Positions 12,445-46,572 of a DNA stretch of 64,000 nt are shown in pieces. The translations under genes were made by a program, and so were the position numbers. Source of the DNA: an uncultured Bacilli bacterium (lineage in GTDB: Bacteria; Bacillota_I; Bacilli_A; RF39; UBA660); NCBI GenBank assembly GCA_947626095.1, contig CANQQV010000004.1, positions 65,934 through 129,933 of the forward strand, read 5' to 3'. The notes under the pieces are model-generated. The model was given only the letters and a program-made list of their open reading frames with translations. It did no database searches and had not been told where the DNA came from. Numbering within the stretch: the first letter of the stretch is position 1; each line of letters begins with the position of its first letter.

Positions 12445-12516
12445 AGATAAAATTGACTTATTTGTCCCAATAGTGTACAATCAGTCTCATCATTTATTTA
12501 TGGGGGAAAGAAAAAA

Positions 12517-13212: not shown

Positions 13213-13279
13213 AAAAAGTTAAAAAAGTACTTGTTATAAGTATTTTTTTTTGGTACAATATTACCGGCTTTAAAAAGCA

Positions 13280-13350
13280 AATAAACATGTTTGTGGATTT
13301 TATTCTCGAGTGCTTAAAATTAAGTGAGGATATTTAGAAACAAACAGAAG
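13280..13350 (+). promoter_or_regulatory. rpsB (S2) autoregulatory leader RNA
   Basis: TGTTTG/CAAACA long-range stem enclosing GGATT and GTGC elements, as in Firmicute rpsB leaders. Confidence 0.55.
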
Positions 13351-13374
13351 TAAAAACGAAGGAGGGAAATTTTT

Positions 13375-14346: not shown

Positions 14347-14378
14347 TATAATATTTAATTAAGAAAGAAGGGTTACAT

Positions 14379-20068: not shown

Positions 20069-20173
20069 TTCCATTCCTCCAATACTACTATATTTTATTA
20101 ATTGACAGCCAAAATTATACATTTTATTTTACTATTTATTTAATTTATATTATTATATTAGTAGGTGATTAAG

Positions 20174-20626
20174 ATGAAAAACTTCTTAAAGAAATATCAA
20201 TTTGTTATTATTTTAACTTTACTATTAATTGTCTTATGTGTAGGCCCTAAACTAGTCTTTGCCGCTACTTCATCTAAACTTAATTTTTGTCAATATCGCG
20301 GTACTAGAAGAGCTTTTAAAATCTTAGGTTTAGTTATTAATTTTATTAAAATCCTTGTTCCAATAATTTTAATTATCACTGGTATTATGTCCTTAAGTAA
20401 AACTATCTTCTCCGGTAAAAGTGAAGATTTTACAGCCAGTTTAACACTTTTAGTTCGTAAATGTATTGCTGGTATTGTTATCTTCTTACTACCAACTGTT
20501 ATTAATTATGCCTTTGATAGTTTAATTGGTTATAACGATGCCTCCTTTACTGCTTGTACTAGATGTATGTTAACTCCAAATAACTGTCAAATACCTGATG
20601 AAGACCCCGACACTTATACTGATTAA
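20174..20626 (+). CDS. Small 3-TM protein, VirB2/TrbC-pilin-like architecture with Cys residues
   Basis: Signal-like N-terminus ending VFAA, two TM helices separated by a short charged loop, Cys-rich tail. Confidence 0.55.
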   Translation: MKNFLKKYQFVIILTLLLIVLCVGPKLVFAATSSKLNFCQYRGTRRAFKILGLVINFIKILVPIILIITGIMSLSKTIFSGKSEDFTASLTLLVRKCIAGIVIFLLPTVINYAFDSLIGYNDASFTACTRCMLTPNNCQIPDEDPDTYTD

Positions 20627-20717: not shown

Positions 20718-20737
20718 TTAAAGTGAAGGGAGTAAAT

Positions 20738-22777: not shown

Positions 22778-23187
22778 TTAATAAAATAATATTCCTTAAC
22801 CTTACGCCCAAAAAGCATTTATTTATCTATTCTATATCTATTACTTGCATATTCATAATAGGACTCCTTTCTTCAAAATTAAAAACATACGATTCCTACT
22901 ATGTAACTGGCTTAGTATCTTGTGATAAAAATTGTAGTATTACGGTATCTTTTCCCTATGATAAAGTTGATATTTTAAAAGAAAATCCTCACATTGAATA
23001 TCTAAACAAAGAATACGAAATAACTTCTATTATTTATAGTGAACCATATTTAAACGATCAAATCCCTTACGAAGATATCAAGCTAATAACTGATCTTCAA
23101 AGTGCAGATCCAATAATTAACTTTAAAATTTTATATAATAAGCAAAGAATAATATCCAAAATAAAAAATATAGTCAAAGGAGAATAA
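22774..23187 (+). CDS. Single-TM accessory protein of the peptide export cluster
   Basis: Overlaps the exporter stop; one TM plus a short beta-rich domain; role (secretion accessory or immunity) unresolved. Confidence 0.55.
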   Translation: MINKIIFLNLTPKKHLFIYSISITCIFIIGLLSSKLKTYDSYYVTGLVSCDKNCSITVSFPYDKVDILKENPHIEYLNKEYEITSIIYSEPYLNDQIPYEDIKLITDLQSADPIINFKILYNKQRIISKIKNIVKGE

Positions 23188-23188
23188 A

Positions 23189-23347
23189 ATGGAACTAACA
23201 AACGAAGAATTAAAAGCAGTTGACGGTGGCAGTTTAAAAGTAACTGTTGGTGGTGTCTTATTAGCTGTTGGAAGCGCCGCAGTTTTTGCCTTAGGTCTAT
23301 TAAAAGGAGTAATGGGTAGTCCAACATGCTCATTAAAAGGAAAGTAG
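23189..23347 (+). CDS. Double-glycine leader bacteriocin-like peptide A (52 aa; absent from ORF track)
   Basis: MELTNEELKAVDGG|SLKVTVGGVLLAVGSAAVFALGLLKGVMGSPTCSLKGK; AAGGAG RBS. Confidence 0.88.
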   Translation: MELTNEELKAVDGGSLKVTVGGVLLAVGSAAVFALGLLKGVMGSPTCSLKGK

Positions 23348-23354
23348 GTGAATT

Positions 23355-23507
23355 ATGACTAACGAAGAGTTATTAAATGTTCAAGGTGGTAGCATTAGTG
23401 CATCACTTCTAAATGCTATTGCTAGAGGTGCAGAAGTACTATATAACATCGGCTCATCACTAGGTAAATGTATTAGATTATTTATTAGTGGCAAAAAATG
23501 TAACTAG
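23355..23507 (+). CDS. Double-glycine leader bacteriocin-like peptide B (50 aa; absent from ORF track)
   Basis: MTNEELLNVQGG|SISASLLNAIARGAEVLYNIGSSLGKCIRLFISGKKCN; AGGTGA RBS. Confidence 0.88.
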   Translation: MTNEELLNVQGGSISASLLNAIARGAEVLYNIGSSLGKCIRLFISGKKCN

Positions 23508-23509
23508 TA

Positions 23510-23534
23510 AAGGAAGAGAGTAATCTCTTCTTTT
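23510..23534 (+). terminator. Terminator closing the peptide cluster
   Basis: AAGGAAGAGA-GTAA-TCTCTTCTTTT. Confidence 0.75.
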
Positions 23535-23643
23535 ATTATTTAGTAAAAAATGTCGAAAATATAACGAATAATACTCTTTTTTCCCTTGTCAAGGCATTTA
23601 TGAAGTGTTATAATCATTTATAGTTATGAAGGGAGGGAAATTT

Positions 23644-23835
23644 ATGACTAAAGTAGTAGTACAAAACGGTAACATTGATGCAGCTCTTAAAAAATTTAAA
23701 GTAAAAGTTGCAAAAAGTGGAGTCCCTTCAAAACTAAAAGAAAAAAAATGCTATGATAAACCTGGCGTTAAAAGACGTAAGGCTAAAGAGGAAATGATTA
23801 GAAACTCTCGTAGACGTAGAAGAAATGATAGATAG
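23644..23835 (+). CDS. rpsU: 30S ribosomal protein S21
   Basis: NIDAALKKFK...K..YDKPGVKRRK; GGAGG RBS; precedes yqeY. Confidence 0.93.
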   Translation: MTKVVVQNGNIDAALKKFKVKVAKSGVPSKLKEKKCYDKPGVKRRKAKEEMIRNSRRRRRNDR

Positions 23836-23846
23836 GAAGTGCTAAT

Positions 23847-24290
23847 ATGGCCTTAACGGATAATGTAGTTAAAGATATGACTGCTGCAATGAAAGCTCAA
23901 GATAAATTTAATTTATCAGTACTTCGTATGCTAAAAACAGCTTTACAAAATGAAAAAATCAATTTAAAACATGATTTATCTGATGATGAAGCTATTACCG
24001 TTATTAAAAGACAAGTAAAGCAAAGAAAAGATAGTATAACTGAATATGCTAAATATGGTAAACAAGAAGAAGTCGATAAATTAAATAAAGAAATCGAATG
24101 TCTATCAAAATATTTACCAGAAGAACTAAGTGAAGAACAAATCAATAAAGTTCTTGATGAAGTATTTGCTGAACTTAAACCTGAAAGTATTAAAGAAATG
24201 GGTAAAGTTATGAAAGAAGCTACTGCAAGACTAGGTAGCGCAGCTGATATGTCATTAGTAAGTTTTTTAGTAAAACAAAGATTAAGTTAA
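23847..24290 (+). CDS. yqeY: GatB/YqeY domain protein
   Basis: DMTAAMKAQDK..LSVLRM, KQRKDSI, YLPEELSEE, KEMGKVM. Confidence 0.92.
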   Translation: MALTDNVVKDMTAAMKAQDKFNLSVLRMLKTALQNEKINLKHDLSDDEAITVIKRQVKQRKDSITEYAKYGKQEEVDKLNKEIECLSKYLPEELSEEQINKVLDEVFAELKPESIKEMGKVMKEATARLGSAADMSLVSFLVKQRLS

Positions 24291-24421
24291 TTAGATGATG
24301 CAAATCATCTTTTTTTATTGAAAAATTAGCAAATTATTTGCCATGTTTTTTCAAAATGAACCCTCCTTAATTGCAAAGGCAACATATAATTGTTATAATT
24401 AAAAAAGAATGGAGTGGAATT

Positions 24422-25954
24422 ATGTACACAATTACCAATATATTTTGGGAAAGAGTAAATTTACACATTATCCTAAATAAAGAAATAGAAGAAAAAGTAT
24501 ATTTATGCAGTAAAACTGAGAGTATTTTACTCAACTCAAAATCAAATGAAATTGTAATAAATGTAACCAATACTCCAGAAGGAACTATGCTAGATGCGAA
24601 AACCTGGACTTTAAGCATAGAAGATTCACAAATAACATTAGATCCTTCGTTACTTCAAACTTTAGATGATAAATCAAGAAATTTTTTATATCGAGGAAAA
24701 AAATATGCATATTTAGTAAACCTTTATGCAACTGAAGAACTAAATTTGACAATTACAACTAAATTTATGATCGAAAATACCAAGCCAAAAGCCTTTTACA
24801 ATCTATCTGAAACAAAAAGATTATCTAGTAAAATAAAAATTATTGCCAAAAGAACATTAGTATCATTATGTAATATTTATTATAAAATATTAAATTTTGT
24901 TAAACCTGGTTCTAAAAATATTTTATTTTTAACGGAAAATAGTGATAGTTTAACCTGGAATTTAAAATACTTATATGAATATCTACCAAAGGACAAATAT
25001 AAGATTAGAATTTACTCTCAAAATAAATATGTTAATAAAAAGAACTACATAAGCCGAATAAAAGAAACTACAGCAATTGCTCTAAGTGATATCATATTTG
25101 TTGATAATTATACTTCAATTCTATCATTCTTAAAACTATCAAAAAATGTTAAATTAATTCAACTATGGCACGCTGGAATTGGCTTTAAATCAGTTGGTTA
25201 TGCTAGATTCGGTCTAGATGGATCACCACATCCATACATTTCTTGTCATCGAAAATATACAGATGTAATAGTTGATCAACCAAATTTAATAGAAGTTTAT
25301 TCAGAAGTTTTTGGTGTCCCAAAATCAAGATTTAAAAGTTATGGTATTCCAAGATTAGACAACTATCTAGACAAAGCAAAGATTAATGAGACTACTGAAA
25401 AATTATATAAAATAAACAAACAGATTGAATCATCAAAAGTAATTCTATTCTCTCCAACATATAGAGGAACAGGAAGTAACACGGCGTATTATGACTTCTC
25501 ATTAATTGACTTAAATAAAATCTATTCTTTTTGCGAAGATAACAATTTTATTTTTATTATAAAAATGCATCCATTTGTAACAGAAAAAATAAATATTCCA
25601 AGTAAATATCAAAATAAAATATATGATTATTCAAATTTAGATATTAATGATTTGATTTATATAAGTGATATTATGATAACAGATTACTCATCATGTGCAT
25701 ATGAATTTTCGTTATTTAATCGTCCATTAATTTTTTATCGTTTTGATAAAGAATTATATGAATATCAAAGACCAATGCATACAGTCGATAGTTTCACTAA
25801 AAAACAATATGAAGTTAAAACACTTGCCGAACTAATGAAAATATTAGATAAAAATAAAGATATAGAAATTAAAGATCGCTTTAAAAACATCAAAAAAGAC
25901 GAAAAAGAATCTTCTTGCGAAAAAATACTAAAAGATATAATAGGTGATGAATAA
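24422..25954 (+). CDS. TarL/TarK-like CDP-polyol phosphotransferase (TagF family)
   Basis: N-terminal IFWERV as in TarL; IQLWHAGIGFKSVGYAR, GIPRLD, FSPTYRG, IKMHP, ITDYSS. Confidence 0.82.
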   Translation: MYTITNIFWERVNLHIILNKEIEEKVYLCSKTESILLNSKSNEIVINVTNTPEGTMLDAKTWTLSIEDSQITLDPSLLQTLDDKSRNFLYRGKKYAYLVNLYATEELNLTITTKFMIENTKPKAFYNLSETKRLSSKIKIIAKRTLVSLCNIYYKILNFVKPGSKNILFLTENSDSLTWNLKYLYEYLPKDKYKIRIYSQNKYVNKKNYISRIKETTAIALSDIIFVDNYTSILSFLKLSKNVKLIQLWHAGIGFKSVGYARFGLDGSPHPYISCHRKYTDVIVDQPNLIEVYSEVFGVPKSRFKSYGIPRLDNYLDKAKINETTEKLYKINKQIESSKVILFSPTYRGTGSNTAYYDFSLIDLNKIYSFCEDNNFIFIIKMHPFVTEKINIPSKYQNKIYDYSNLDINDLIYISDIMITDYSSCAYEFSLFNRPLIFYRFDKELYEYQRPMHTVDSFTKKQYEVKTLAELMKILDKNKDIEIKDRFKNIKKDEKESSCEKILKDIIGDE

Positions 25955-25955
25955 T

Positions 25956-27074
25956 ATGGTATTAATTTTAAGAATCGCAATTATTTTTTTAAACATAATA
26001 TATTTTTTTCTAAAACTATTACCAACACAAAACAAAATAGTTTTTATGAGTAGACAATCAAACAATCCAAGTCTAGATTTCAACTTACTACAAAATAAAT
26101 TAAAAAATAAATACAAAGTTGTTATCCTATGTAAAACTTTAGATGGTAAAGACAAAGCAAAAATTAAATCAATAATAAGTTATGGTTTTCATATGTTAAG
26201 GCAGATGTACGAGCTAGCAACTTCTAAAGTATGCATATTAGATAGTTATATTCCAACAATAAGTATTCTAAAACACAAAAAAAGTCTAACCATCATTCAA
26301 ATGTGGCATTCTAATGGTACTATGAAAAAGTTTGGTTATACCGCCTTAAAAAAAGCTGAAGGTAACAACAGTAAATACGTTAAAATTCTAAAAATGCACA
26401 AAAACTATGATATTGTTTTTGCTTCTGGCAGTGCATATAAAAGTCATTTAGCCAAGGGCTTTAATATATCCGAAGATAAAATTCTAACGTATTCATTACC
26501 AAGAATCGATTTGTTATCAGATAAAGAATATGAGCAAAAAACAAAAAGAAAAATATTCAAGGAATATCCAGAATTAGACTCAAAGAAGAAAAACATTGTC
26601 TATGCTCCAACTTTTAGAAAAAATGAAGAATCTTTTAATGAAAAATTTAAAGAATTAATAAAAAATATCGATATAACTAAATACAATGTCATTGTTAAAC
26701 TTCATCCGTTATCAAAAGTTACAATTGAAAATAGCGATGTAATAATTGATAATAAATTTTCTACATTTGACATGTTATTCATTGCCGATGCTCTAATAAG
26801 TGATTACTCATGTGTAATCTATGAAGCAGGAGTAAGAAACATCCCTCTATATTTTTATGCTTATGATTTAGAAGAATATGAAAAAAATAGAGGTCTTGCC
26901 CTTGATTATAATGAACTACCAGGATATACAGAAAGAAGTGGCAAAAAATTAGCATTATCTTTAGAAAAAGAATATGATAAAACATATTTAAAAAAGTTTA
27001 TTAAAAAATATGTTGAAAACACAAAAAATTGTACTGAAAAAATAGTTGAATTAATTGAAACAAAAATGAAATAG
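25956..27074 (+). CDS. TagB/TarB-like teichoic acid primase (TagF family)
   Basis: IQMWHSNGTMKKFG, LPRID, YAPTFRK, VKLHP, ISDYS. Confidence 0.8.
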   Translation: MVLILRIAIIFLNIIYFFLKLLPTQNKIVFMSRQSNNPSLDFNLLQNKLKNKYKVVILCKTLDGKDKAKIKSIISYGFHMLRQMYELATSKVCILDSYIPTISILKHKKSLTIIQMWHSNGTMKKFGYTALKKAEGNNSKYVKILKMHKNYDIVFASGSAYKSHLAKGFNISEDKILTYSLPRIDLLSDKEYEQKTKRKIFKEYPELDSKKKNIVYAPTFRKNEESFNEKFKELIKNIDITKYNVIVKLHPLSKVTIENSDVIIDNKFSTFDMLFIADALISDYSCVIYEAGVRNIPLYFYAYDLEEYEKNRGLALDYNELPGYTERSGKKLALSLEKEYDKTYLKKFIKKYVENTKNCTEKIVELIETKMK

Positions 27075-27082
27075 GTGATTAT

Positions 27083-28144
27083 ATGGAAAAACACAACGGT
27101 ATTATCAGTTTTTGGAAATTTATTTTTTGTTTAGTTATAATAATATTTCATGCTGGTGAATATTTTATCGGAAAACAAGAAATATTATTTAGATATGGTT
27201 CAATAGCCGTTGAATTTTTCTTTATAGTTTCTGGCTTTTTAATGTGTAAAAAAGCCTGTAGTACCAAAACAAGTTCAAATACTTCAATCGGTCAGGAGAC
27301 TTTTCAGTTTGTCATATCCAAATTTGCAAAATTATTTCCCTATATTTTAATTGCCTTTATTGTTGATTGTTTATTAAGATGTTTAGCCGACATAAGTAGT
27401 ATTAAATATTATATAAATGGTTTATTTGATCTATTTATGTTAAAAATGGCTGGTTTTAAAACAACCGGCTTTATTGGACATACATGGTATATATCTGCTA
27501 TGTTAATCTCCATGGCTTTAATATATCCGCAAATAAAAAAATTTGACAAAAATTATTTCTATTTAATTGCTCCTTTATCAATTATATTAATCGGTGGCTG
27601 GTTTAATCAAAGCTATGGAAATTTAAGAGAACCGACTATATGGACTGGCTTTGCCTACAAAGGTTTAATTAGAGCATATATTGAAGTAATGATTGGCAGT
27701 CTTCTATATCCATTGGCAGTAAAACTAAAAAGAGTCAATTTCACAAACACAGCAAAATTATTAAGCACATTTTTCGAGTGGGGGGGGTACATCTTTGTAA
27801 TATTAGTTAGTCATTTTATTAAAGATACAAGTCTAGACTATATTCTCGTAGTCGTTCTTGCTTTATCTATATTAATATCATTCTCAGAACAAACACTAGA
27901 ACTAAAAATAATGAGTAACAAATTTGTATTCTTTTTAGAAAAATTAAGCTTAACAATGTACCTAATTCACATTCCATTTAGGTCATATTTTAAAATAATC
28001 AATAGTCCCATAACATATAGACAAGAACTTATTTTTTTATTAACTATATCACTTATTTTAGGGACAATTATGATATACTTTGTTGAATACTTAAAAAAGA
28101 AAGAATACTTTATTCCTCAAATTAAAAAGCTAATAATTAAATAA
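27083..28144 (+). CDS. Acyltransferase-3 (OafA-like) membrane O-acyltransferase
   Basis: About 10 TM; IIFH, AVEFFFIVSGF, HTWYIS, SLTMYLIH. Confidence 0.85.
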   Translation: MEKHNGIISFWKFIFCLVIIIFHAGEYFIGKQEILFRYGSIAVEFFFIVSGFLMCKKACSTKTSSNTSIGQETFQFVISKFAKLFPYILIAFIVDCLLRCLADISSIKYYINGLFDLFMLKMAGFKTTGFIGHTWYISAMLISMALIYPQIKKFDKNYFYLIAPLSIILIGGWFNQSYGNLREPTIWTGFAYKGLIRAYIEVMIGSLLYPLAVKLKRVNFTNTAKLLSTFFEWGGYIFVILVSHFIKDTSLDYILVVVLALSILISFSEQTLELKIMSNKFVFFLEKLSLTMYLIHIPFRSYFKIINSPITYRQELIFLLTISLILGTIMIYFVEYLKKKEYFIPQIKKLIIK

Positions 28145-28157
28145 TCAGAATAAGGAA

Positions 28158-31100
28158 GTGAAAAGTATGAAAAATACTTTACAATCAAAGTTAAAAAGAA
28201 TCAAAAATAAACTAATTACATACTATAAAAATGAAAATGCAGGTAAATACCTTTTTGATAATCAAAGAGTAATAATTAATGAAGACGACAAACGAAAAGT
28301 TTGGGCATTTTGTTCTGGTCAAAACAGCCAAGATTTTCGTGGTAATCCTAAATACTTATTCTTATACATAAATACTTATCGTAAAGATATAACAGCATAC
28401 TGGCTATGTGATAATGATGACACAATAAGATTTGTTAGGAAATTAGGTTATAAAGCTTATAAGATTGGTACAAAACAATCTGAAGAAGCCATAAGTAAAA
28501 CAGGTGTTTTAGTAACAGAACAAGTTAAAGAATACATTCCTGAAGGCCTAGAAAATGCTATATATGTTAATTTATGGCATGGAGTAGGTGGTGTAAAAAA
28601 CGTTGAGCGTTGTATATATGATGGAATCCTAGGCGAACCAATTATAAAAAAATATATAAAGAATAACTACATATTTTTAAGAAACGAACTATATTTAGCT
28701 CCATCTAAATTCATCGAAGAAATTGCTATTGATCAACTAGGATTAGAAAAAAACAAAATAATAAGAGCCGGCTATCCCAGATGTATATACCAAAAAGAAT
28801 ATAATTTTAAACCAACATTTGATACCAATTTAATTCAAAAAAATAATCTTCCTGAAGATACAAGAATAGTTGCTTATACCCCAACATGGCGTAGTGAAAG
28901 TGATGGTGATTTTTTTACTAAAGCAATTCCCGACATTAATAGTTTGATTGAAGTATGTGAAAAAAATCATCTATTATTTATTTTTAAAATGCATCCAATC
29001 CTAGAAAATGAGAAAGGCTTTCTTGAAGCTAAAGAACATTATAAAAACAATCCTTGGTTAATATTTTGGGATAATAAATACGACTTTTATGAAGTTATGC
29101 CGCAAGTTGATTTATGTATCATGGATTTTTCATCAATCTATACCGACTTTATATTAATGGGAACAAAACACTACATAAGATACTTGTTTGATAATGATAG
29201 TTTAACTATGGATTTTCCAATGAATTATGATGATACAACACTAGGGAAAAAATGTTATACATTCACTGATTTACTTAAAACTTTAAGCAACTATCAAAAC
29301 GAAAATTTAGATAAAGAAATTCAAAAAATAACGGAACTATATTGGGAATACTCTACACCAAATGATATGGATAATATCATTCAATCAGTGTTAGAATTTA
29401 AACCTGAAGAAAAGCCACTAAACATCTTATATAGTTATGATATATTTGATACTTTAATTTCGCGAAAAGTTTTAGAACCAACAGGAATCTTTTATTATGT
29501 TAAAGAGAAAATGATTGCTTCAAATATGAATTTCCCTGAATATCTAATAGTTGACTATCCGAATATTAGAAAAAATGCCGAATTAGATGTTAGAGAATAT
29601 TATACTAGGACAAAAGAAGAAAGAAAAAGTGATAAATGTGAAATTCAATTTGACGAAATCTTTGAACATATTCAATCAGTTTTTAAAATATCCAAAGAAC
29701 AAACAAATAAATTAAAAGAGTGGGAACTAGAAGCTGAACTAGAAAATGTAATTCCAATAAGTGAAAATATTTCAAAGGTAAAACAATTATTAAAAGATAA
29801 ACAAAAAGTAATGTTGATAAGTGATATGTATCTACCAAAAGATTTTATCATTAAATTACTGAAAAAAGTTGATCCCGAACTTGCTAAATTAGATATGTAT
29901 TTATCTTCTGAATATGGATACATGAAAGCCGACAAAACTTTATTTATGGAAGTATACCGAAAATATGGGAAAAAATATTTCTTTGACAAATGGATTCATG
30001 TTGGTGATAATCCTAAATCAGACGATATAATGCCTAAAAAATTATTCATAACAACATCACCAGTAACAAAACTAGAATTTAATCAATACGAAAAAGATTT
30101 AATAAATTGTATTAATAATTATGATGCTTATTTAGTAGCTGCTTCTTTAGCAAGATTTAGAAATGAACATCCAAGTTTAAAAGAACAATTTGTTTATTCG
30201 TACGTATCATTACTATTTGTTCCATATGTTTTATGGGCTTTAACAAATGCTAAATCCGATAAAGATAAAGTAGTATATTTTGTATCTAGAGATGGTCATA
30301 ACTTAAAGAAAATAGGGGACGTCATAAACGAAAAGCTAAAACTTGATTTAGAACTAAAATATATTTACGCCTCTAGAAAAACATGGCGTATACCTTCATT
30401 TATTGATCAAATTGATGATGATTTCTGGGGTGAAGGACACGGTAACTTCAATGAAGTATCGACATTTAATAAACTTTTACTAGCTCTTGATATAACTAAA
30501 GAAAAATTTAATGAAATCTTTCCGGAATTAATAAAATATGAAAAAGTTGAAAAAATAACCCCTAAAGATATGAAAAACATGATAAGTATATTTCGTTCAT
30601 CCAAAAAATACAATGAATATCTACTAAATAAAGCCAAAGAAGAAAGAGAATCTGTTTGCGGATATTTAAAACAAGAAATTGATTCTAAAAAACAATTCTC
30701 AATTGTCGAATATTGGGGAAGAGGGTATACTCAAGAAAACTTTACAAGACTATGGAATGAAATTACTGGCCAAAAAGAACCAACAAAGTTTTATTATTCA
30801 CGAAGCACGTTACCAAGTAATGAAATGAATATTAGATATAATTTCATTATCAATAATCAAGCTCAACAATTTATCGAATCAGTATTTGCTTGTATAAACT
30901 ATAAATCTATTGCCGAATATAAAAAAGAAAATGATAAATGGGAACCAGTTATCAAAGAGCAATATTGTGATTTAGTTCTATTTAAAGCATTAGAAACTTT
31001 GTTGCCGCAATTTGCTGAAGAATACTGTTCAATTAATTTTATAAATAGGAATGATATTGGCCGAGCACTTGCAGAGTTTGCTTTAAAATATTATCAAAAC

Positions 31101-32513
31101 AAACCTACATGGGAAGGATTTGTCAATATTTTGGCTGAACAAGTCGATTCTGTTCAAGTATATGGTCAAAAGACAAAATATGCCCCTAAATTAACCGTCA
31201 AAGATATTTTAGAAGTTAGATTTAATAAAACTAAATTAAATTTAATCACTAAGAATCCAACAATATCAATTAATAAATCATCACCTAAAGTTCAAAAAAT
31301 GTTTACGGAACTATATCAAGTAAAAGACATAAACAATATAATTGAGACTCAAAAATACAAAAAATATGAAATAATTGAAAGCAACAAACAACAGAAATTA
31401 CTAACAAAATATGAAACAGCAAGTAAGAAACTAAATAATTTCTACGAAAAATATGCTAAAGAAATAAAAATAACTAACAAAATAGTAATATTAATGTTAG
31501 ACAACAATTTTAAAAATTACTATCAAACATTATGTGATAAATTAGCAACGCAGAACAAATACAAGGTTGAATATATTAAAATAAATAGAATAAGTAAAAA
31601 GAATTTAGCCAAAAAATTATTAGAATCTAAATATATCATTTTAAGCGAACCACATTATTTATTTAGTGATTTAGACTTAAAACAAGAGACAAGTGTTGTT
31701 ATTTTAGGCAAGTATGCATTCTCGTATTTACCAGAAGGTTTATCTAAAATAAACAAAGTAGATTCATATAATCGCCTAAATGACTATATTTATAAAACAA
31801 ATATATCAATATTACAATGTGCCTCTAATGAAAACTCTTTAATAAAAAAGAAAATTTACAATACCAATCTTACTACTAATATCTTAAAAAACGGTTCAAC
31901 TATCACAGATATTTACTTTGATGAGCAACAAAAAGCTAATATTAAGAATGCTATTTATCGAAAATATTCTATTCCTAAAAATAAAAAAATTATTGCTTAT
32001 ATAACATATGCCAGATATCGAAATAATAAAAGTCAATTTATAGAATTACTTAATATAAATGACTTAAATAGAAAATTAGGCAATGAATACGTCTTATTAA
32101 TAAAATACATTTCTAATGAAAAAGTAGATTATATTGGTAATAATTTTAATCTTAAAGGTTTTGCAAAAGATATATCAAAAGATCTTTCAACCCGCGAATT
32201 AATGATTGCTGCAGATATAATCGTTGGAGATTATGCTAACGAATTATTTGAATCGCCACTATTACATAAACCAGTATTTATAACTGGCTGGGATAAAGAT
32301 GCATTCGAATCTATATATAACACCTTTATAAGTATTAGTAATGAACCATATGGTCAAATTATCTATAATACCGAAGAATTGATTAATAGTATCAATGACA
32401 TCACCAATTATAATTACGAGATTCAAGAAAAATTCAAAGATAAATATTTGGAAAATTGCGATGGTCACAGCGCAGAAAGATTAGTAGAATTCTTAACTAA
32501 TGAAAAAAAGTAA
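28158..32513 (+). CDS. Multidomain polymerase: TagF-like polyol-phosphate transferase + HAD phosphatase + glycan phosphoribosyltransferase-like + degenerate TagF-like domain (Bcs3-like)
   Basis: GNPKYLF, NLWHGVG, GYPR, YTPTWR, FKMHP, DFSSI; YDIFDTLISR, SDMYL, HVGDN..SD; YFVSRDG, YASRKTWR, VEYWGRGYTQ; C-terminal ADIIVGDY...DGHSAERLV. Confidence 0.85.
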   Translation: MKSMKNTLQSKLKRIKNKLITYYKNENAGKYLFDNQRVIINEDDKRKVWAFCSGQNSQDFRGNPKYLFLYINTYRKDITAYWLCDNDDTIRFVRKLGYKAYKIGTKQSEEAISKTGVLVTEQVKEYIPEGLENAIYVNLWHGVGGVKNVERCIYDGILGEPIIKKYIKNNYIFLRNELYLAPSKFIEEIAIDQLGLEKNKIIRAGYPRCIYQKEYNFKPTFDTNLIQKNNLPEDTRIVAYTPTWRSESDGDFFTKAIPDINSLIEVCEKNHLLFIFKMHPILENEKGFLEAKEHYKNNPWLIFWDNKYDFYEVMPQVDLCIMDFSSIYTDFILMGTKHYIRYLFDNDSLTMDFPMNYDDTTLGKKCYTFTDLLKTLSNYQNENLDKEIQKITELYWEYSTPNDMDNIIQSVLEFKPEEKPLNILYSYDIFDTLISRKVLEPTGIFYYVKEKMIASNMNFPEYLIVDYPNIRKNAELDVREYYTRTKEERKSDKCEIQFDEIFEHIQSVFKISKEQTNKLKEWELEAELENVIPISENISKVKQLLKDKQKVMLISDMYLPKDFIIKLLKKVDPELAKLDMYLSSEYGYMKADKTLFMEVYRKYGKKYFFDKWIHVGDNPKSDDIMPKKLFITTSPVTKLEFNQYEKDLINCINNYDAYLVAASLARFRNEHPSLKEQFVYSYVSLLFVPYVLWALTNAKSDKDKVVYFVSRDGHNLKKIGDVINEKLKLDLELKYIYASRKTWRIPSFIDQIDDDFWGEGHGNFNEVSTFNKLLLALDITKEKFNEIFPELIKYEKVEKITPKDMKNMISIFRSSKKYNEYLLNKAKEERESVCGYLKQEIDSKKQFSIVEYWGRGYTQENFTRLWNEITGQKEPTKFYYSRSTLPSNEMNIRYNFIINNQAQQFIESVFACINYKSIAEYKKENDKWEPVIKEQYCDLVLFKALETLLPQFAEEYCSINFINRNDIGRALAEFALKYYQNKPTWEGFVNILAEQVDSVQVYGQKTKYAPKLTVKDILEVRFNKTKLNLITKNPTISINKSSPKVQKMFTELYQVKDINNIIETQKYKKYEIIESNKQQKLLTKYETASKKLNNFYEKYAKEIKITNKIVILMLDNNFKNYYQTLCDKLATQNKYKVEYIKINRISKKNLAKKLLESKYIILSEPHYLFSDLDLKQETSVVILGKYAFSYLPEGLSKINKVDSYNRLNDYIYKTNISILQCASNENSLIKKKIYNTNLTTNILKNGSTITDIYFDEQQKANIKNAIYRKYSIPKNKKIIAYITYARYRNNKSQFIELLNINDLNRKLGNEYVLLIKYISNEKVDYIGNNFNLKGFAKDISKDLSTRELMIAADIIVGDYANELFESPLLHKPVFITGWDKDAFESIYNTFISISNEPYGQIIYNTEELINSINDITNYNYEIQEKFKDKYLENCDGHSAERLVEFLTNEKK

Positions 32514-32602
32514 AAATTCTACATACTATACCATGAATATATTTTATGCTATAATAAGCATATAAAAAAATTCAAAGAAAAAAGCATTTTTATGGAGGTT
32601 TT

Positions 32603-33355
32603 ATGAAAAAAATTGCAATAATCTTTGCTGGCGGAGCAGGAAAAAGAATGGGTGGTGAAATACCAAAACAATTTTTAAAAGTATGTGGTAAAGATATCAT
32701 CATTCATACGCTTGAATTATTTGAAAATAATCCAGATGTTGATGAAATTGTTGTTGCTTGTATTGAAAGTTGGATACCTTATTTAAAGAAACTAATCAAA
32801 AAATTTGAAATAAATAAAGTAGTTAAAGTAATACCAGGTGGGGCTACAGGTCAAGATACAATTTTCTTAGGTCTTAAAGAAGCTAAAAAGAATAATGAAG
32901 ATGCAATCGTTCTAATTCATGATGGAGTAAGACCATTAGTATCACAAGAAACGATAAGCAATTGTATTAATAGTGTTAAAAAATATGGCAGTGCAATTAC
33001 TGTAACACCATGTTTTGAAACACCGATAATTAGCTATGATGGTAAAGTCGTAAATGAAATGCCTCAAAGAGCAATAATGTATACAGCCCAAGCTCCTCAA
33101 TGTTATCATTTAAAAGATATTTATGACGCGCATATTAAAGAACGAAAAGTCAATCCTAATTATGAGGGAATTGTCGATTCATGTGGCTTAATGTTTAAAA
33201 ATGGTTTAAATCCTCATCTTGTAATAGGTAATCGTGGTAACATCAAAGTAACAACTCCAGAAGATTATTGTACATTAATAGGTAATTTAAATGCTCGAGA
33301 TTACCAAGAATTCTTAAATTTAGAGTCAAATATTGAAACAAAAGGAGAAAAATAA
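32603..33355 (+). CDS. tarI: IspD/TarI-family polyol-phosphate cytidylyltransferase
   Basis: FAGGAGKRM, PKQFL, IHDGVRP, QAPQ, NIKVTTPED; lies in the teichoic acid locus. Confidence 0.82.
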   Translation: MKKIAIIFAGGAGKRMGGEIPKQFLKVCGKDIIIHTLELFENNPDVDEIVVACIESWIPYLKKLIKKFEINKVVKVIPGGATGQDTIFLGLKEAKKNNEDAIVLIHDGVRPLVSQETISNCINSVKKYGSAITVTPCFETPIISYDGKVVNEMPQRAIMYTAQAPQCYHLKDIYDAHIKERKVNPNYEGIVDSCGLMFKNGLNPHLVIGNRGNIKVTTPEDYCTLIGNLNARDYQEFLNLESNIETKGEK

Positions 33356-34426
33356 ATGAAATATACAAAAATAGTTGACGAAGATGCTAAGTATATTATC
33401 AAATCTTGTCAGCCTGAAATCCTATTATCTAAATTAAAGAACAAAGTTTTTTTAGTAACAGGTGCTTCAGGAATGATTGGTTCATACATAATTTATACAT
33501 TGCTAAAATTAAACGAAGAATACAAAGCTGATATTAAAATAAAAGCTGTTGTAAGAAACATAAATAAATTAGATGAATATATAAAAAATAATAAAAAAGT
33601 TGAAGTTATAGTTCAAGATATAATTAAACCATTAGAAATTAAAGATGAGATTAATTACATTGTTCATGCTGCTTCTCCAGCTAGTCCTAAAATTATGAAA
33701 GATCAACCAGTCGAAACTAACTTTGCTAATACAATCGGAACTGCTAATACTTTAAACTTAGCAAAAGAAAAAAACGCAGATGGTTATTTATTCATTTCAT
33801 CAAGAGAAATATATGGTGAACCAGCTGATGGTCAAGAGCTATTTACCGAAGACGGACCATTGGGTCAAGTTAATCCATTAGTTCCCCGAAACGGATATGC
33901 CGAAGGTAAAAAAGCTGCTGAAAATATGTGCTCTGGTTTTAAAGAAGAGTATGGATTAAATACTAAAATAGTAAGACTCGCTCATACCTACGGTCCTGGA
34001 ATGTCAATATATGATGGTAGAGTCCAAGCTGATTTTCTTAATAATATATTACATAATCAAAATATTATTCTTAAAAGTGATGGCTCATCAGTAAGAACAT
34101 ATACCTATATTGCTGATGCTGTAGTTGCCATGTTTTTAGTATTGCTAAATTCAGAAGATATGGTTTATAACATTGCCGATGAAAATTCAAAGACAACAAT
34201 TAAAGAGTTGGCAGAAACTCTTATAAAAATTAAAGCAGAAAAACATTTAGAATTAATATTTGATATACCAAAAGAAAAAGATAAAGGCGCCGCTTCATTT
34301 AAGAACGGTATTCTATCAACTGATAAAATAAGGAAAGAATTATCATGGAATCCTAAATTTAGTATCTATGATGGTTTTGCAAGAACAGTTAAACATTTAG
34401 AAGAAGAACTAAAAGACGAATTATAA
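33356..34426 (+). CDS. Extended SDR (NAD-dependent epimerase/dehydratase family), probable CDP-pentulose reductase
   Basis: TGASGMIG, HAASPASP, SSREIYG, YAEGK (YxxxK), YGPG; immediately follows tarI. Confidence 0.75.
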   Translation: MKYTKIVDEDAKYIIKSCQPEILLSKLKNKVFLVTGASGMIGSYIIYTLLKLNEEYKADIKIKAVVRNINKLDEYIKNNKKVEVIVQDIIKPLEIKDEINYIVHAASPASPKIMKDQPVETNFANTIGTANTLNLAKEKNADGYLFISSREIYGEPADGQELFTEDGPLGQVNPLVPRNGYAEGKKAAENMCSGFKEEYGLNTKIVRLAHTYGPGMSIYDGRVQADFLNNILHNQNIILKSDGSSVRTYTYIADAVVAMFLVLLNSEDMVYNIADENSKTTIKELAETLIKIKAEKHLELIFDIPKEKDKGAASFKNGILSTDKIRKELSWNPKFSIYDGFARTVKHLEEELKDEL

Positions 34427-34460
34427 CAATTAATTCACTAACATTTTGGAGAGTGATTCA

Positions 34461-35243
34461 ATGAAAAGATTTTTCAATAATATTAAAAAGTATTATAAAT
34501 ATGCTATAAGATCAGCCAAAGCTGAACTAAAAAGCGAAGTTGCTGATTCCTATTTAAATTGGTTATGGTGGGTAATTGAACCATTGTGCTTTATGCTAAT
34601 TTATACCTTTGTTTTTGGTATGATATTTGGTAATAAAGAACCATACTTTGCTTCATTTATAATGATAGGAGTTGCCTTATGGGATTTTGCTAATAGAATG
34701 ATCACAGGAAGTGTCAGACTGATTATCAATAATCGCGATTTAGTTACGAAAGTTTATATTCCTAAATATATATTGCTATTTTCTAAATCAATTACTTATC
34801 TCTTTAAAATGTGTATATCTTTAGGATTAGCCTTTGGTTTAATGCTAGTTCAACATGTTCCACTAACATGGCACATTATTCTATTAATACCAGTAATATT
34901 AGTTTTATATATTGTTTGTTTTGGCATTGGGCTTATTCTTATGCATCATGGTGTTACCTTTGATGACTTAAGTAATTTAACCAATATCGCCCTAAAAATG
35001 ATTTTCTACGTTTCTGGTGTTTTCTATAATATTAAAACAAGATTAAAAGGCAAAGCTGGATATCTTCTTCTTCGTGTAAATCCCTTAGCTTTCCTAATGG
35101 ACGAAGCGAGAAAAGTAACAGTATATGGTCAAATGTTCAGTATCCAAGGATTATTATTTTGGTTAGCAATTGGCATTCTTCTATGTGTATACGGTATACA
35201 TGTAATACATAAATACGAAAATAGCTATGCGAAGGTGATATAA
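34461..35243 (+). CDS. tagG: Teichoic acid/polysaccharide ABC exporter permease (TagG/Wzm)
   Basis: SYLNWLWWVIEPL, KVYIP, FYVSGVFY, NPL; 6 TM. Confidence 0.88.
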   Translation: MKRFFNNIKKYYKYAIRSAKAELKSEVADSYLNWLWWVIEPLCFMLIYTFVFGMIFGNKEPYFASFIMIGVALWDFANRMITGSVRLIINNRDLVTKVYIPKYILLFSKSITYLFKMCISLGLAFGLMLVQHVPLTWHIILLIPVILVLYIVCFGIGLILMHHGVTFDDLSNLTNIALKMIFYVSGVFYNIKTRLKGKAGYLLLRVNPLAFLMDEARKVTVYGQMFSIQGLLFWLAIGILLCVYGIHVIHKYENSYAKVI

Positions 35244-35989
35244 TGGCAACAGAAAATAAAAAAGATATAGCAATAACTGTTAAAAATCTTCATATAACAT
35301 ATCGTGGTTTGAAAAAAACTTCTATAAGAGCATCGTGGAAAAATTTTGGTAACAAAATAGAAACTTTTCATGCTTTAAAAGGTGTAAGCTTTGAACTAGA
35401 AGAAGGTAAAATACTTGGCATAATTGGAAAAAATGGTTCAGGAAAATCAACTATGTTAAGAGCAATAGCTGGTATTTTCTCACCTGATAAAGGTGAAATT
35501 GATCTTCATGGCCGAACAATATCTCTTCTTTCTATTGGTGTTGGCTTTAATAAAAAATTAACTGGTCGCGAAAATATTTATCTATCAGGAATGTTATTAG
35601 GCTTTTCTGAAGAGGAAATTGCTGCTAAAGAAAAAGAGATAATAAAATTCGCTGATATTGGTGACTTCATCAATAAAAGAGTAAAAACATACTCATCAGG
35701 AATGTATTCAAAATTAGCTTTTGCTATCACAGCTATCTTAGAAACAGACATAACCTTAATTGACGAAGTATTATCAGTTGGTGATGCAAAATTCAAGGAA
35801 AAAAGCTATAACAAAATGAAAGAATTAATTTCTGATGAAAAAAGAACTGTTTTAATAGTTTCTCACAGTTTAGGAACCATCAGAGAATTATGTGATGAAG
35901 TACTATGGTTAAATGATGGCAAAATAATGGAAATTGGTAAACCAGATGTCGTTATACCTAAATATGAAGAATTTATGAAAGAAAACTAA
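35243..35989 (+). CDS. tagH: Teichoic acid/polysaccharide ABC exporter ATPase (TagH/Wzt)
   Basis: ALKGVSF, GKNGSGKST, LTGRENI, YSSGM, IDEVLSVGD. Confidence 0.9.
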   Translation: MATENKKDIAITVKNLHITYRGLKKTSIRASWKNFGNKIETFHALKGVSFELEEGKILGIIGKNGSGKSTMLRAIAGIFSPDKGEIDLHGRTISLLSIGVGFNKKLTGRENIYLSGMLLGFSEEEIAAKEKEIIKFADIGDFINKRVKTYSSGMYSKLAFAITAILETDITLIDEVLSVGDAKFKEKSYNKMKELISDEKRTVLIVSHSLGTIRELCDEVLWLNDGKIMEIGKPDVVIPKYEEFMKEN

Positions 35990-36013
35990 GAATACTAAAA
36001 AGTATTCTTTTTT

Positions 36014-36021
36014 CATACAAT
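36014..36021 (+). promoter_or_regulatory. Sigma-E-type -10 element for yqfCD
   Basis: CATACAAT matches the sigma-E -10 consensus; the promoter overlaps the tagH terminator AAGAATACT/AGTATTCTT. Confidence 0.6.
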
Positions 36022-36036
36022 TATATAGGTGATTAA

Positions 36037-36279
36037 ATGATAATAGATAATTTTAAAAATATCTTTATAAATGAAGCCTATTCAATTAATTTAACTAATA
36101 ATAAAATATATATTCAAAACTACGATAAACTATTATCAATAACTGATAAACAAATCTTACTTAAATTAAAAGATTTTAATCTTAAAATAAAAGGGCTAGA
36201 TTTTAAAATTGTGAAAATGCTAGACAAAGAAATCTTATTTAATGGTCATATTGAAAGTATGGAATACATCTATAACTAA
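36037..36279 (+). CDS. yqfC: Sporulation protein YqfC (YabP family)
   Basis: IYIQNY..LLS.T...I.L...IKG....EI.FNG.I; precedes yqfD. Confidence 0.8.
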   Translation: MIIDNFKNIFINEAYSINLTNNKIYIQNYDKLLSITDKQILLKLKDFNLKIKGLDFKIVKMLDKEILFNGHIESMEYIYN

Positions 36280-37411
36280 TTTAATAGATATAAGTATTAA
36301 TACTAAATCACCTAATAAGACCATTAAATATTTAAGAAATTTAAATATAAATATCTATAATATTAAATATAATAAAGATTATATAATCGTTAAAATAAAA
36401 GAAAATGAACTAGAAAAAGTCGCTAAATACTATAATTATGAAATTATAAATTATTATGGTAAAACCAAGTTAATTAACTATTTAAAAATAAATAAATTAT
36501 CTTTAACTATGTTATTTATTATTCTAATAATTATTTTCATTTTAACTAGATTTATTATAAATATTAACGTTATTACTGAAGATAGTGAATTAAAAAGTCT
36601 ACTTTTAAATGAACTAGATAAAAATGAAATAAAAAAGTATACCATTGCTAAATCCAATCAAAAAATAAACGAGATTAAAAAAAACATTTTGAATAATAAT
36701 AAAAATACTATCGAATGGCTTAATATTGAAAGAAAAGGTATGAAATACATCATTAATGTTGAACCTAAAGTAAATAAAGAGAAACAAGAAGAACCACCAT
36801 ATTGTAATGTTATCTCCCTAAAAGATAGTATGGTAACTCGTATTATTACCAGTAAAGGCATGGAAGTTGTTGATGTAAATGATTCAGTTAAAAAAGGGGA
36901 TATTTTAATTTCTGGTGATATTAAATTCAATGAAGAAACAAAAGAACAAGTATGTGCTAGTGGTCAAGTATATGGTCATACCTGGTATACAGTTAATATC
37001 ACTATTCCTCGTAATTACGAAGAAATAACCAAATTAAGTAAAAAAAGATATAACTTAGAAATAAGCTTTAATAATAAAAAATATCGTTTATTTAAAGATC
37101 GTTTAACTAAATATCAAACACAGAGTAAAGAAATTGTTAATCTTTTAGGCTTTAAATTATCTTTACTAAAAGATACTGAAATAGAGAGTAATACCAAAGA
37201 ATACACTGATCATGAATTAGAAAATAATATCAAAAAACAAATCGAAGATAAAATGAAAAATATCTTAAAAGGGGAATATAAGATAATTACGCAAAAAGTT
37301 TTGAAAAAAGAACTAAATGATAGTAAAATAGATATGGAAGTATTTATAGTAGCCGAAGAAGAAATAAGTACAACCAGTACGGAATCACTAAATACTGAAG
37401 AAAATGAATAA
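36242..37411 (+). CDS. yqfD: Sporulation protein YqfD (start codon uncertain)
   Basis: IEWLNIERKG, PYCNVIS.KD.MV, VKKGDILISG, ASGQVYGHTWY. Confidence 0.87.
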   Translation: MVILKVWNTSITNLIDISINTKSPNKTIKYLRNLNINIYNIKYNKDYIIVKIKENELEKVAKYYNYEIINYYGKTKLINYLKINKLSLTMLFIILIIIFILTRFIININVITEDSELKSLLLNELDKNEIKKYTIAKSNQKINEIKKNILNNNKNTIEWLNIERKGMKYIINVEPKVNKEKQEEPPYCNVISLKDSMVTRIITSKGMEVVDVNDSVKKGDILISGDIKFNEETKEQVCASGQVYGHTWYTVNITIPRNYEEITKLSKKRYNLEISFNNKKYRLFKDRLTKYQTQSKEIVNLLGFKLSLLKDTEIESNTKEYTDHELENNIKKQIEDKMKNILKGEYKIITQKVLKKELNDSKIDMEVFIVAEEEISTTSTESLNTEENE

Positions 37412-40695: not shown

Positions 40696-40725
40696 TTGAC
40701 GAACACTAGTTCGTTATTGTATAAT
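40696..40725 (+). promoter_or_regulatory. Sigma-A promoter of tnpB overlapped by a LexA (Cheo) box
   Basis: TTGACG-N18-TATAAT with CGAAC-ACTA-GTTCG at 40700-40713. Confidence 0.65.
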
Positions 40726-40748
40726 TGTCTTACAAGGGGAAGATGGTT

Positions 40749-46508: not shown

Positions 46509-46572
46509 CGTTTGGTCAACTAAAAAAAATATTATATAATAGACAAAGTATTTTAAAAAGGGCGTGATTAAA

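Follow-up and report, generated by a model that had tools for sequence, protein, structure and literature searches.

What would a polymerase resembling a Gram-negative capsule enzyme make in the wall-polymer locus of a Gram-positive-type bacterium? The question is raised by a stretch of 64,000 nucleotides (hereafter the window; 27% G+C) from an uncultured Bacilli bacterium, a gut commensal (assembly GCA_947626095.1, contig CANQQV010000004.1, positions 65,934 to 129,933), in which one gene encodes a relative of Bcs3, the capsule polymerase of Haemophilus influenzae type b (Hib). The original prediction, made from the letters alone, described an enzyme with the CroT-CrpP-CriT order of Bcs3 in a Gram-positive wall-polymer locus, and our analysis supports this by sequence, residue checks, fold and gene context. 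We consider it probable that this 1448-aa multi-enzyme protein polymerises an exported [ribofuranosyl-pentitol-phosphate]n wall polymer from 5-phosphoribosyl 1-pyrophosphate (PRPP) and a CDP-pentitol, probably CDP-ribitol. Homology to Bcs3, conserved catalytic residues, folds and gene context are given first.

The open reading frame (ORF) of the polymerase occupies 28158-32513 on the + strand, with 1451 codons counted from GTG 28158, and residues are numbered from this GTG throughout. GTG 28158 itself lies inside the ribosome-binding-site-like AAGGAAGTG, and ATG 28167, which comes after it, is the likely start. The product then has 1448 aa, as has P0002, an identical protein in the database. 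All eleven motifs named in the original prediction were found in the order given and in a single frame, at residues 62 (GNPKYLF), 140 (WHGVG), 205 (GYPR), 242 (PTWR), 277 (KMHP), 428 (DIFDT), 555 (SDMYL), 616 (GDN), 710 (SRDG), 737 (YASRKTWR) and 850 (VEYWGRGYTQ). Its end coordinate needs correction: position 31460 corresponds to residue 1101, where the Bcs3-like part ends, and the gene continues to 32513, encoding a C-terminal degenerate TagF-like domain of about 350 residues that the prediction overlooked.

A phmmer search against all PDB chains retrieved Bcs3 (8a0c/8a0m, 9h50/9h5i) with an E-value of 8.5e-175 and 587 bits, well above what chance would give, and the close motif match stated in the prediction is borne out by alignment. 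A single alignment covers about 1040 residues (query 57-1096 against chain 11-1064), and the next matches, TagF and TarL, follow at about E 1e-13 to 1e-11. With Pfam only Glyphos_transf was recognised on the polymerase, in two stretches. Bcs3 is divided into CroT (1-373), CrpP (374-591), CriT (592-1036), SH3b (1037-1115) and a predicted helical tail (1116-1215) (PMC10299916). Alignment to these domains places CroT at 28167..29402 (+, residues 4-415), the CrpP phosphatase domain, which is haloacid dehalogenase (HAD)-like, at 29403..30062 (+, residues 416-635, aligned to Bcs3 374-591), and the CriT PRPP-dependent ribofuranosyltransferase domain at 30063..31370 (+, residues 636-1071, aligned to Bcs3 592-1036). 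The key residues given for Bcs3 are H96, G99 and H233 in CroT, D386 in CrpP, and D680, E818 and E874 in CriT, with S678, R679, S707, R708, R712, T825 and S884 binding PRPP (PMC10299916). Correspondences were read from the phmmer alignment with a chain offset of +3, verified at four motifs. In the window protein the CroT residues correspond to H141, G144/G145 and H279, the CrpP nucleophile Asp to D428 (in YDIFDT), the CriT residues to D712, E851 and E907, and the PRPP-binding residues to S710, R711, S739, R740, R744, T858 and S917, in the same order. All of the published catalytic and PRPP-binding residues of the three domains, whether shown or proposed, are kept.

The same residues are conserved among the relatives. 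A protein search gave 147 matches among 8000 candidates scored, and most of the 120 listed homologues showed 97-100% query coverage, the C-terminal domain included. The few named ones among them come from metagenome-assembled genomes (MAGs) of Bacilli, Eubacteriales, Blautia and Lachnospiraceae, and all are annotated as 'CDP-glycerol glycerophosphotransferase family protein'. The family alignment comprised 96 sequences of 1400-1570 aa, namely the window protein and 95 of the 120 listed homologues; excluded were the duplicate P0002, four proteins of lesser length (998-1267 aa) and 20 of greater length (1813-2462 aa). Residues H141, G142, G145, K147 and H279 in CroT, D428, D431, S555, D556, K590, D617 and D622 in CrpP, and R711, D712, S739, R740, E851 and E907 in CriT are conserved in 96 of 96 sequences, R744 and S917 in 95. 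The signature of ribitol-phosphate transfer, Gly in place of Pro three residues past the catalytic His (G99 in Bcs3), is present as WHGVGG, with Gly at that column in 96 of 96, and an extra Gly in this region occurs in 43 of the 96. Furthermore, an AlphaFold2 model of residues 4-1100 built with 21 sequences (predicted local distance difference test, pLDDT, 85.8; predicted template modelling score, pTM, 0.75) matched 8a0c/8a0m in a structural comparison with the PDB at E 2e-80, with a template modelling (TM) score of 0.76-0.78 and 33% identity over about 1040 columns; the second structural match was the Thermobacillus composti ribofuranosyltransferase 7shg (E 2.5e-18). Absence of the fold of CriT, a glycan phosphoribosyltransferase (gPRT), from the middle region had been named as grounds for rejecting the prediction, and this objection is answered because the AlphaFold2 model matches Bcs3 including CriT. 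On every catalytic and fold feature compared, as judged from alignment and predicted structure, the window protein is a member of the Bcs3 family; it lacks SH3b.

The region in which SH3b is expected deserves closer description. In Bcs3 this domain (1037-1115) binds polymer and is reported to be essential for activity (PMC10299916). At its position the window protein has a linker (31371..31454, +) that is helical in both of our models (H1066-1096; H2-15), and Pfam found no PF19087 or SH3 match at E <= 0.1 in the polymerase. The linker leads into a domain with the TagF/TarL fold and without the catalytic histidines (31455..32513, +, residues 1100-1451 plus the stop codon). Pfam and NCBIfam match its second lobe only. 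An AlphaFold2 model of residues 1085-1451 (14 sequences, pLDDT 86.6, pTM 0.87) was matched by Foldseek over both lobes to TagF (E 3.5e-19, TM 0.72) and TarL (TM 0.75-0.76), and hhalign aligned the C-terminal family with 14 intact TagF-like domains at a probability of 100 and E 2.3e-42 over 352 columns. These 14 intact domains, taken from the window and related loci, share 14 invariant columns, nine of which are replaced in the window domain. The catalytic base His (TagF H444, TarL H300) is K1185, with Glu as the family consensus; the Arg of 'PR' is I1249; the Pro-Thr of 'PTxR' is T1283-Y1284; the second His (TagF H584, TarL H433) and its Pro are I1318-S1319; and the Ser of 'DYS' in the DYSS donor motif is A1360, with Arg in 77 of the 96 family members. 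Kept are the Arg of 'PTxR' (R1286), the Asp-Tyr of 'DYS' (D1358-Y1359) and a later Asp (D1379). The number of columns that are 95% conserved is 65 in CroT, 43 in CrpP, 54 in CriT and 15 in the C-terminal domain.

It could be argued that this domain retains transferase activity through non-canonical catalytic residues and serves to attach a third component or to prime the chain. Its fold is complete and confidently modelled, and D1353, G1357, D1358, Y1359, E1365, R1286 and R1346 are conserved. The active primase Cps7A of Actinobacillus is reported to have Tyr at the position of the first His (PMC11666461), and in the window domain Tyr1186 ('GKYAF') stands beside the aligned Lys1185, for which reason the loss of the first His alone does not prove inactivity. 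Additionally, 26 of the 96 family members have a His near the second catalytic position. However, Tyr1186 is unconserved, the family consensus being Ser, and the second His, reported as essential in TagF, TarL, TagB and Cps7A, is Ile1318 in the window protein. No column of the domain holds a conserved His in the 96 sequences, the maximum in any column being 26. In our judgement the loss of the second His and of the donor-site Ser in the aligned sequences carries more weight than that of the first His, and an active C-terminal transferase appears very improbable. Since the domain combines a TagF/TarL fold with replaced catalytic positions, we read it as a catalytically degenerate TagF-fold module, as far as alignment and model can tell, standing at the place of SH3b.

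Two precedents make such a non-catalytic role plausible by analogy. According to the supplement of the Bcs3 study, the homologues without SH3b, those of S. epidermidis, C. botulinum and E. coli K18, could have this domain 'substituted by another binding module' (PMC10299916), and mutants of Cps7A, a member of the TagB family, are reported still to stimulate the polymerase Cps7D in making long chains although they are catalytically dead (PMC11666461). Similarly, in five longer family members examined (1833-2462 aa) there is a single WHG/KxHP pair, the N-terminal one. We propose that the module binds the acceptor or the polymer, or acts as a scaffold, in replacement of SH3b.

Analysis of the surrounding genes revealed a cassette of nine genes arranged head to tail on the + strand (24371-35989), the polymerase gene among them, between yqeY (23847..24290, +; Pfam YqeY E 7.9e-45) and yqfD (36242..37411, +; Pfam YqfD E 4.5e-57). 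The first gene (24371..25954, +) encodes a TarL-like polyol-phosphate transferase of 527 aa (Glyphos_transf E 2.1e-50) with both catalytic His, a WHAGIGFK loop of TarL length that lacks the glycerol-type Pro-Leu, and KMHP; its best PDB match is S. aureus TarL 8va1 (E 1e-53), to which it is much closer than to TagF (4.5e-16). It is followed by a TagB/TarB-like, primase-type transferase of 376 aa (25944..27074, +; Glyphos_transf 2.4e-53; WHSNGTMK, KLHP), for which the top NCBIfam match is TarB at 138.6 bits (cut-off 500). A membrane acyltransferase of the Acyl_transf_3 family (27083..28144, +; PF01757 2.2e-21), a candidate O-acetylase of the polymer, precedes the polymerase, and its position is kept in G010, another genome of the genus. 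Downstream of the polymerase lie an IspD/TarI-like cytidylyltransferase (32603..33355, +; PDB TarI 6xhp E 4.8e-34) and an extended short-chain dehydrogenase/reductase (SDR) of 356 aa (33356..34426, +; Pfam Epimerase 3.4e-38), a candidate CDP-ketose or ketose-phosphate reductase, whose start codon abuts the stop codon of the cytidylyltransferase with zero gap. A CDP-polyol pathway directly downstream had been predicted, and this cytidylyltransferase and reductase pair is what lies there. The export predicted through TagGH also has its counterparts in the cassette: a TagG/Wzm-like ABC-2 permease (34446..35243, +; PF01061 3.3e-11) and a TagH/Wzt-like ATPase in a short form of 248 aa (35243..35989, +), whose top NCBIfam matches are TagH models (215 and 199.9 bits; cut-offs 538 and 320). 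A scan for promoters and terminators over 23000-36500 was uninformative for the limits of the operon (101 promoter-like sites with 97.5 expected, three terminator-like sites with 3.0 expected).

The source genome is a MAG of 1.6 Mb in 34 contigs, 91% complete with 7.9% estimated contamination. It contains four Glyphos_transf domains, all within the cassette, and a single gene matching the IspD family (PF01128), that of the cassette. One LytR_cpsA_psr gene (147 bits) for a LytR-CpsA-Psr (LCP) ligase is present outside the cassette, and one of two glycosyltransferase family 4 (TagO/MraY) genes lies about 5 kb from it, on contig 27. Peptidoglycan genes in the window are murG, murB, murT and gatD.

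From these genes we infer the substrates, the order of steps and the product as follows. CriT would use PRPP to place ribofuranose-5-phosphate on the polyol at the end of the growing chain, CrpP would remove the 5-phosphate, and CroT would add polyol-phosphate from a CDP-polyol, most likely CDP-ribitol supplied by the adjacent cytidylyltransferase and extended SDR; repetition of this cycle would yield the [ribofuranosyl-pentitol-phosphate]n chain. The TagB-like and TarL-like enzymes encoded upstream would probably prime a lipid-linked acceptor. O-acetylation of the chain may be the task of the acyltransferase, whereas the TagG/TagH-like proteins would export it and the LCP enzyme encoded elsewhere would attach it to peptidoglycan. 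Given export through TagG/TagH and attachment by LCP, such a polymer would count as a complex wall teichoic acid.

Several findings weigh against this scheme. It is known from the genes alone of an uncultured organism, represented by a MAG with the contamination given above, and the TagH, TarB and TarL matches are all under the NCBIfam equivalog cut-offs. No TagA/WecG homologue exceeded the family cut-off in the 91% complete genome (best 22.2 bits, cut-off 27.4). In addition, the TarL-like enzyme might make the main chain instead. In that case it would produce poly(pentitol-phosphate), and the Bcs3-like protein would add a ribofuranosyl-pentitol-phosphate cap, branch or short block. Such a division of labour fits the presence in one operon of a TarL-like enzyme with both catalytic histidines, and the absence from the window protein of SH3b, reported as essential in Bcs3 (PMC10299916). 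However, the three catalytic centres that cooperate when Bcs3 polymerises are all retained, with the same arrangement in space, and at four related loci (L011, L015, L038 and L048) none of the ORFs scanned is a TarL-like neighbour. Short primers are reported to precede the polymerase in S. aureus (PMC11666461), which fits priming by the two upstream enzymes. We thus see only a slight chance that the Bcs3-like protein is not the main-chain polymerase.

If the Bcs3-like protein does polymerise the main chain, the identity of its polyol is the next question. The simplest reading of the genes is that the whole cassette uses one CDP-polyol larger than glycerol, because no glycerol-3-phosphate cytidylyltransferase was found in the source genome (91% complete), the cassette gene is the sole IspD gene, the three intact TagF-like domains lack the glycerol-type Pro-Leu motif and have loops of TarL length, and one of the enzymes is TarL-like. 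The Pro-Leu rule for glycerol-phosphate transferases is described in PMC10901376 and PMC10299916. Within this class ribitol is the probable polyol, on account of the resemblance of two enzymes to TarI and TarL, the Gly signature, and the TarJ-type zinc-dependent alcohol dehydrogenase (Zn-ADH) genes of related loci; in one of these, L039, the Bcs3-like gene is accompanied by IspD, a TarJ-type Zn-ADH and ribulose-phosphate 3-epimerase (Rpe). The cytidylyltransferase passes the model for ribitol-5-phosphate cytidylyltransferase (NF001183), barely, with 168.8 bits at a cut-off of 166.

The reductase speaks less clearly. The Bcs1 reductase is a short SDR, and the window SDR is neither of this type nor a TarJ-type Zn-dependent reductase. 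Its best PDB matches are UDP-glucuronate decarboxylase (1.2e-37) and, from residue 24, CDP-6-D-glucitol synthase 8v4g (1.4e-35), and in view of these solved relatives arabinitol or a hexitol may be the polyol instead. The chemistry would then be the same with another polyol: a ketose phosphate is cytidylylated and the SDR reduces the CDP-ketose, as in the CDP-6-D-glucitol pathway of Campylobacter and the CDP-D-arabinitol pathway of pneumococci (enzymes AbpA/AbpB), giving a ribofuranosyl-arabinitol-phosphate or hexitol polymer unlike the polyribosyl-ribitol-phosphate (PRP) of Hib. The 8v4g match includes the stretch preceding the Rossmann fold. HS5.17, a CDP-6-D-glucitol synthase, is reported to reduce a CDP-ketose following cytidylyl transfer (PMC10918830), and in S. 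pneumoniae CDP-D-arabinitol is reported to derive from CDP-D-xylulose (PMC13576159). Along such a route, CDP-arabinitol would arise from xylulose-5-P. The SDRs beside Bcs3-like genes also fall into two lineages that are just 32-35% identical to each other, and one related locus (L042:2-2943) carries, next to a 1468-aa Bcs3-like gene, a Zn-ADH, a GatZ/KbaZ-like protein and IspD, a gene combination that may point to a hexitol donor (tagatose- or fructose-derived) in that organism. However, the 8v4g match is unspecific, UDP-glucuronate decarboxylase being equally similar, and the best solved relative of the cytidylyltransferase is TarI. The neighbouring 527-aa enzyme is TarL-like, and six related loci have TarIJ-type genes, one of them with Rpe. 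On balance we regard a polyol other than ribitol as unlikely, and ribitol stays the preferred candidate.

Other features of the two genes discriminate little. The active site of the SDR reads Ser-Ser-Arg-Glu, and its Tyr-x3-Lys and Glu are common to UDP-glucuronate decarboxylase and CDP-glucitol synthase, so that they allow no functional discrimination. In a tree of 11 cytidylyltransferases, the split between SDR-paired and Zn-ADH-paired members was weakly supported (77/78), and for this reason no conclusion on the substrate is drawn from it. A role of the SDR as UDP-xylose synthase, compatible with its sequence, is unlikely because the gene adjoins a cytidylyltransferase here and in four other Bcs3-like loci.

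To place the cassette among its relatives, a metagenome scan yielded 245 stretches encoding such proteins, of which 80, representing 56 loci, were kept; eight of the contig names among these mention human gut. Three size forms were distinguished: about 1440-1490 aa, like the window protein; about 1020-1075 aa, lacking the C-terminal domain; and 1877-1890 aa, with two tandem degenerate domains. The longest form accounts for 22 complete copies among the 56 loci, and one cluster of 1880-aa proteins has 1774 member sequences. The Bcs3-like family is frequent in gut metagenomes. The 1877-1890-aa form recurs in L012-L040 and L051 (e.g., L015:9755-15427), on many gut-metagenome contigs. In L015 the neighbours of the polymerase gene are two acyltransferase genes and a gene for a surface protein of 2833 aa, and the ORFs scanned there include no CDP-polyol genes. 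In L047 (9770-15454, on a metagenome contig of 1.26 Mb) at least four ORFs hold the pieces of a Bcs3-like frame (up to 56% identical), which may have decayed or been misassembled.

Gene context was compared at 16 loci: the window, G010, G426 (a genome of the same phylum) and 13 metagenome loci selected to avoid redundancy and to have sufficient flanking sequence; locus L049, short contigs and the near-duplicates of L015, L059 and L062 were left out. The flanking ORFs scanned at the metagenome loci were the nearer ones (51 and 45 of 175 listed). IspD with a Zn-ADH adjoins the Bcs3-like gene at six of the 16 loci (L039, L042, L044, L046, L053, L059), IspD with an extended SDR at five (window, L010, L009, L045, L062), and neither pair was seen among the ORFs scanned at the remaining five (L011, L015, L038, L048, L066). 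TagG/H-type ATP-binding cassette (ABC) transporter genes were found at nine of the 16 loci, as were further intact TagF-like genes, and YfhO at seven. A teichoic-acid-type context is thus the rule among the 16 loci, although not universal. In the window, the YfhO-family membrane protein (930 aa, 42122-44914, +) is encoded 6 kb downstream of the cassette, and at the six other loci (L009, L038, L042, L045, L048, L059) YfhO often occurs with a glycosyltransferase of family 2; this co-occurrence suggests, from gene neighbourhood, extracytoplasmic glycosylation of the same polymer.

The distribution of the polymerase among close relatives is patchy. The full-length form was detected in two of 25 genomes of the genus, the source genome (G000) and G010 (73% identity), and in two of 399 scored genomes drawn from the phylum (G000 and G426, 58%), with two more not scored. 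Other genomes of the genus encode proteins of 650-1040 aa that match the CrpP-CriT part only, at about 30% identity, without a full polymerase (G022:C8:10800-12071, G017:C296, G018:C3:56243-61699, G011:C16, G008:C9, G023:C4), and PRPP-dependent ribofuranosylation therefore seems common in the genus. At the site between yqeY and yqfD, these two genes are adjacent and the site is empty in G023 and G018. In G001 it holds a different island of about 13 kb (L078, G001:C2, about 2300-14800) without a Bcs3-like gene, which comprises TagG and TagH 77-87% identical to those of the window, an acyltransferase, a pair of TagF-like genes and a further 7 kb or so of genes. In G005 TagF-like genes adjoin yqfD before the contig ends. 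Because the site is empty or filled with other islands in sister genomes, comparison of these sequences marks it as a hot spot for exchangeable wall-polymer cassettes.

Beyond the cassette, further features of the window were noted. Just left of yqeY lies a peptidase-C39 ABC exporter of the bacteriocin-export type (20723-22777, +), accompanied by small ORFs at 20165-20626 and 22774-23187; its position is kept in G023, G018 and G001. An IS605-family TnpB-like gene (40725-41885, +) with HTH_OrfB_IS605, OrfB_IS605 and Cas12f1-like TNB domains is located between recO and the YfhO gene, and in general annotation no TnpA was noticed beside it. A 473-aa protein (3800-5221, +) with a C-terminal phosphodiester glycosidase (NAGPA) domain adjoins murG and murB, and its domain makes it a possible trimming enzyme for phosphodiester-linked wall glycans. 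ORFs of 190-520 aa without a Pfam family at the thresholds used are found at 46564-48129, 49863-51481 and 61325-62690, all on the + strand.

The original prediction also raised mimicry of the Hib vaccine antigen. By analogy with Bcs3 the composition of the window polymer may match that of Hib PRP, and mimicry is put forward here as a hypothesis. The acyltransferase in the operon suggests O-acetylation of the polymer, and Hib PRP is not known to be O-acetylated. E. coli K100 capsule shares the components of PRP and differs in linkage. Carriage of cross-reactive gut bacteria, E. coli K100 among them, has long been linked to Hib immunity and susceptibility (PMC9239265), and the poly-ribitol-phosphate of four Gram-positive bacteria was the subject of Argaman et al. 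(1974), as cited in the same paper. A bolder proposal is that many gut Firmicutes, including those with the polymerase form often met in human-gut metagenomes, carry on their surface a ribosyl-ribitol-phosphate wall polymer similar enough to Hib PRP for anti-PRP antibody to bind it, and that the dead TagF-fold domain is a new polymer-binding or processivity module replacing SH3b; we consider this combination quite unlikely. If it were true, such Firmicutes would be a major natural source of the 'natural' antibody against Hib, and one much more common than E. coli K100. Were common commensals to carry a ribose-ribitol-phosphate polymer, this would matter for Hib immunity and susceptibility and for enzymatic routes to PRP-like antigens. 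The degenerate TagF-fold domain offers a natural experiment on how multi-enzyme machines hold a growing chain. Furthermore, the polymerases of complex wall teichoic acids are stated in PMC10299916 not to have been identified. With its nine genes the window locus offers a compact candidate pathway to a polymer of this type, and the context is alike at most of the related loci examined, so that the question of teichoic-acid clusters becomes directly testable in vitro.

Comparison with known systems delimits what is new. Bcs3 itself (8A0C/8A0M, Cifuente et al. 2023, PMC10299916) has the domain order, catalytic residues, fold and domain arrangement of the window protein, and its donors, PRPP and CDP-ribitol, are probably the same, judging from the sequence. 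Bcs3 carries SH3b and C-terminal amphipathic helices, whereas the window protein has a degenerate TagF-fold domain of about 350 residues instead. Bcs3 belongs to a group 2 capsule locus, while the window combines TagG/H-type ABC export with a teichoic-acid-like operon in a Gram-positive-type host. Unlike the Bcs3 system, this operon includes an acyltransferase, and its CDP-polyol genes are split and include an extended SDR, in contrast to the fused Bcs1. Full-length Gram-positive homologues of Bcs3 are already described in PMC10299916, with SH3b in Lactococcus, Enterococcus, Weissella and Mammaliicoccus and without it in S. epidermidis and C. botulinum, all of them sharing with the window protein their full length and their place in the Firmicutes. 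Their gene context, including teichoic-acid clusters, is left there to what 'future studies will show', and the text contains no description of a C-terminal TagF-like domain, about which the alignments in its Supplementary Data 1 and 2 may show more.

The C-terminal domain shares the GT-B fold of S. aureus TarL and S. epidermidis TagF (8VA1, 3L7I-M; TM 0.72-0.76) and lacks equivalents of TarL H300/H433 (TagF H444/H584) and of the DYSS Ser, whereas PF04464 is common to TarL/TagF, the window CroT and the two upstream gene products. The dual-domain ribofuranosyltransferase of Thermobacillus composti (7SHG) and other phosphatase-gPRT enzymes of O-antigen and capsule synthesis share the HAD-type phosphatase and the PRPP-dependent glycan ribofuranosyltransferase; they add a single ribofuranose, have no fused polyol-phosphate transferase, and match the fold much more weakly than Bcs3 does (TM 0.22-0.41). 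HS5.17/HS5.18 of Campylobacter jejuni HS:5 (8V4G/8V4H, PMC10918830) pair a cytidylyltransferase with an extended SDR bearing an N-terminal extension, as the window does, but the similarity of the window SDR to HS5.17 is no better than to UDP-glucuronate decarboxylase, and Met139-Glu140 of HS5.17 correspond to Arg-Glu in the window. In the open literature no paper was found with a characterisation of a homologue of this kind, of its locus or of a degenerate TagF-like domain at the C-terminus, and subscription-only papers or the Bcs3 Supplementary Data 1-2 could hold more. The original description of the locus as an undescribed system thus stands in part: full-length Gram-positive Bcs3 homologues were already known, and the new elements are the gene context of such a homologue and the apparently inactive TagF-like domain that it carries.

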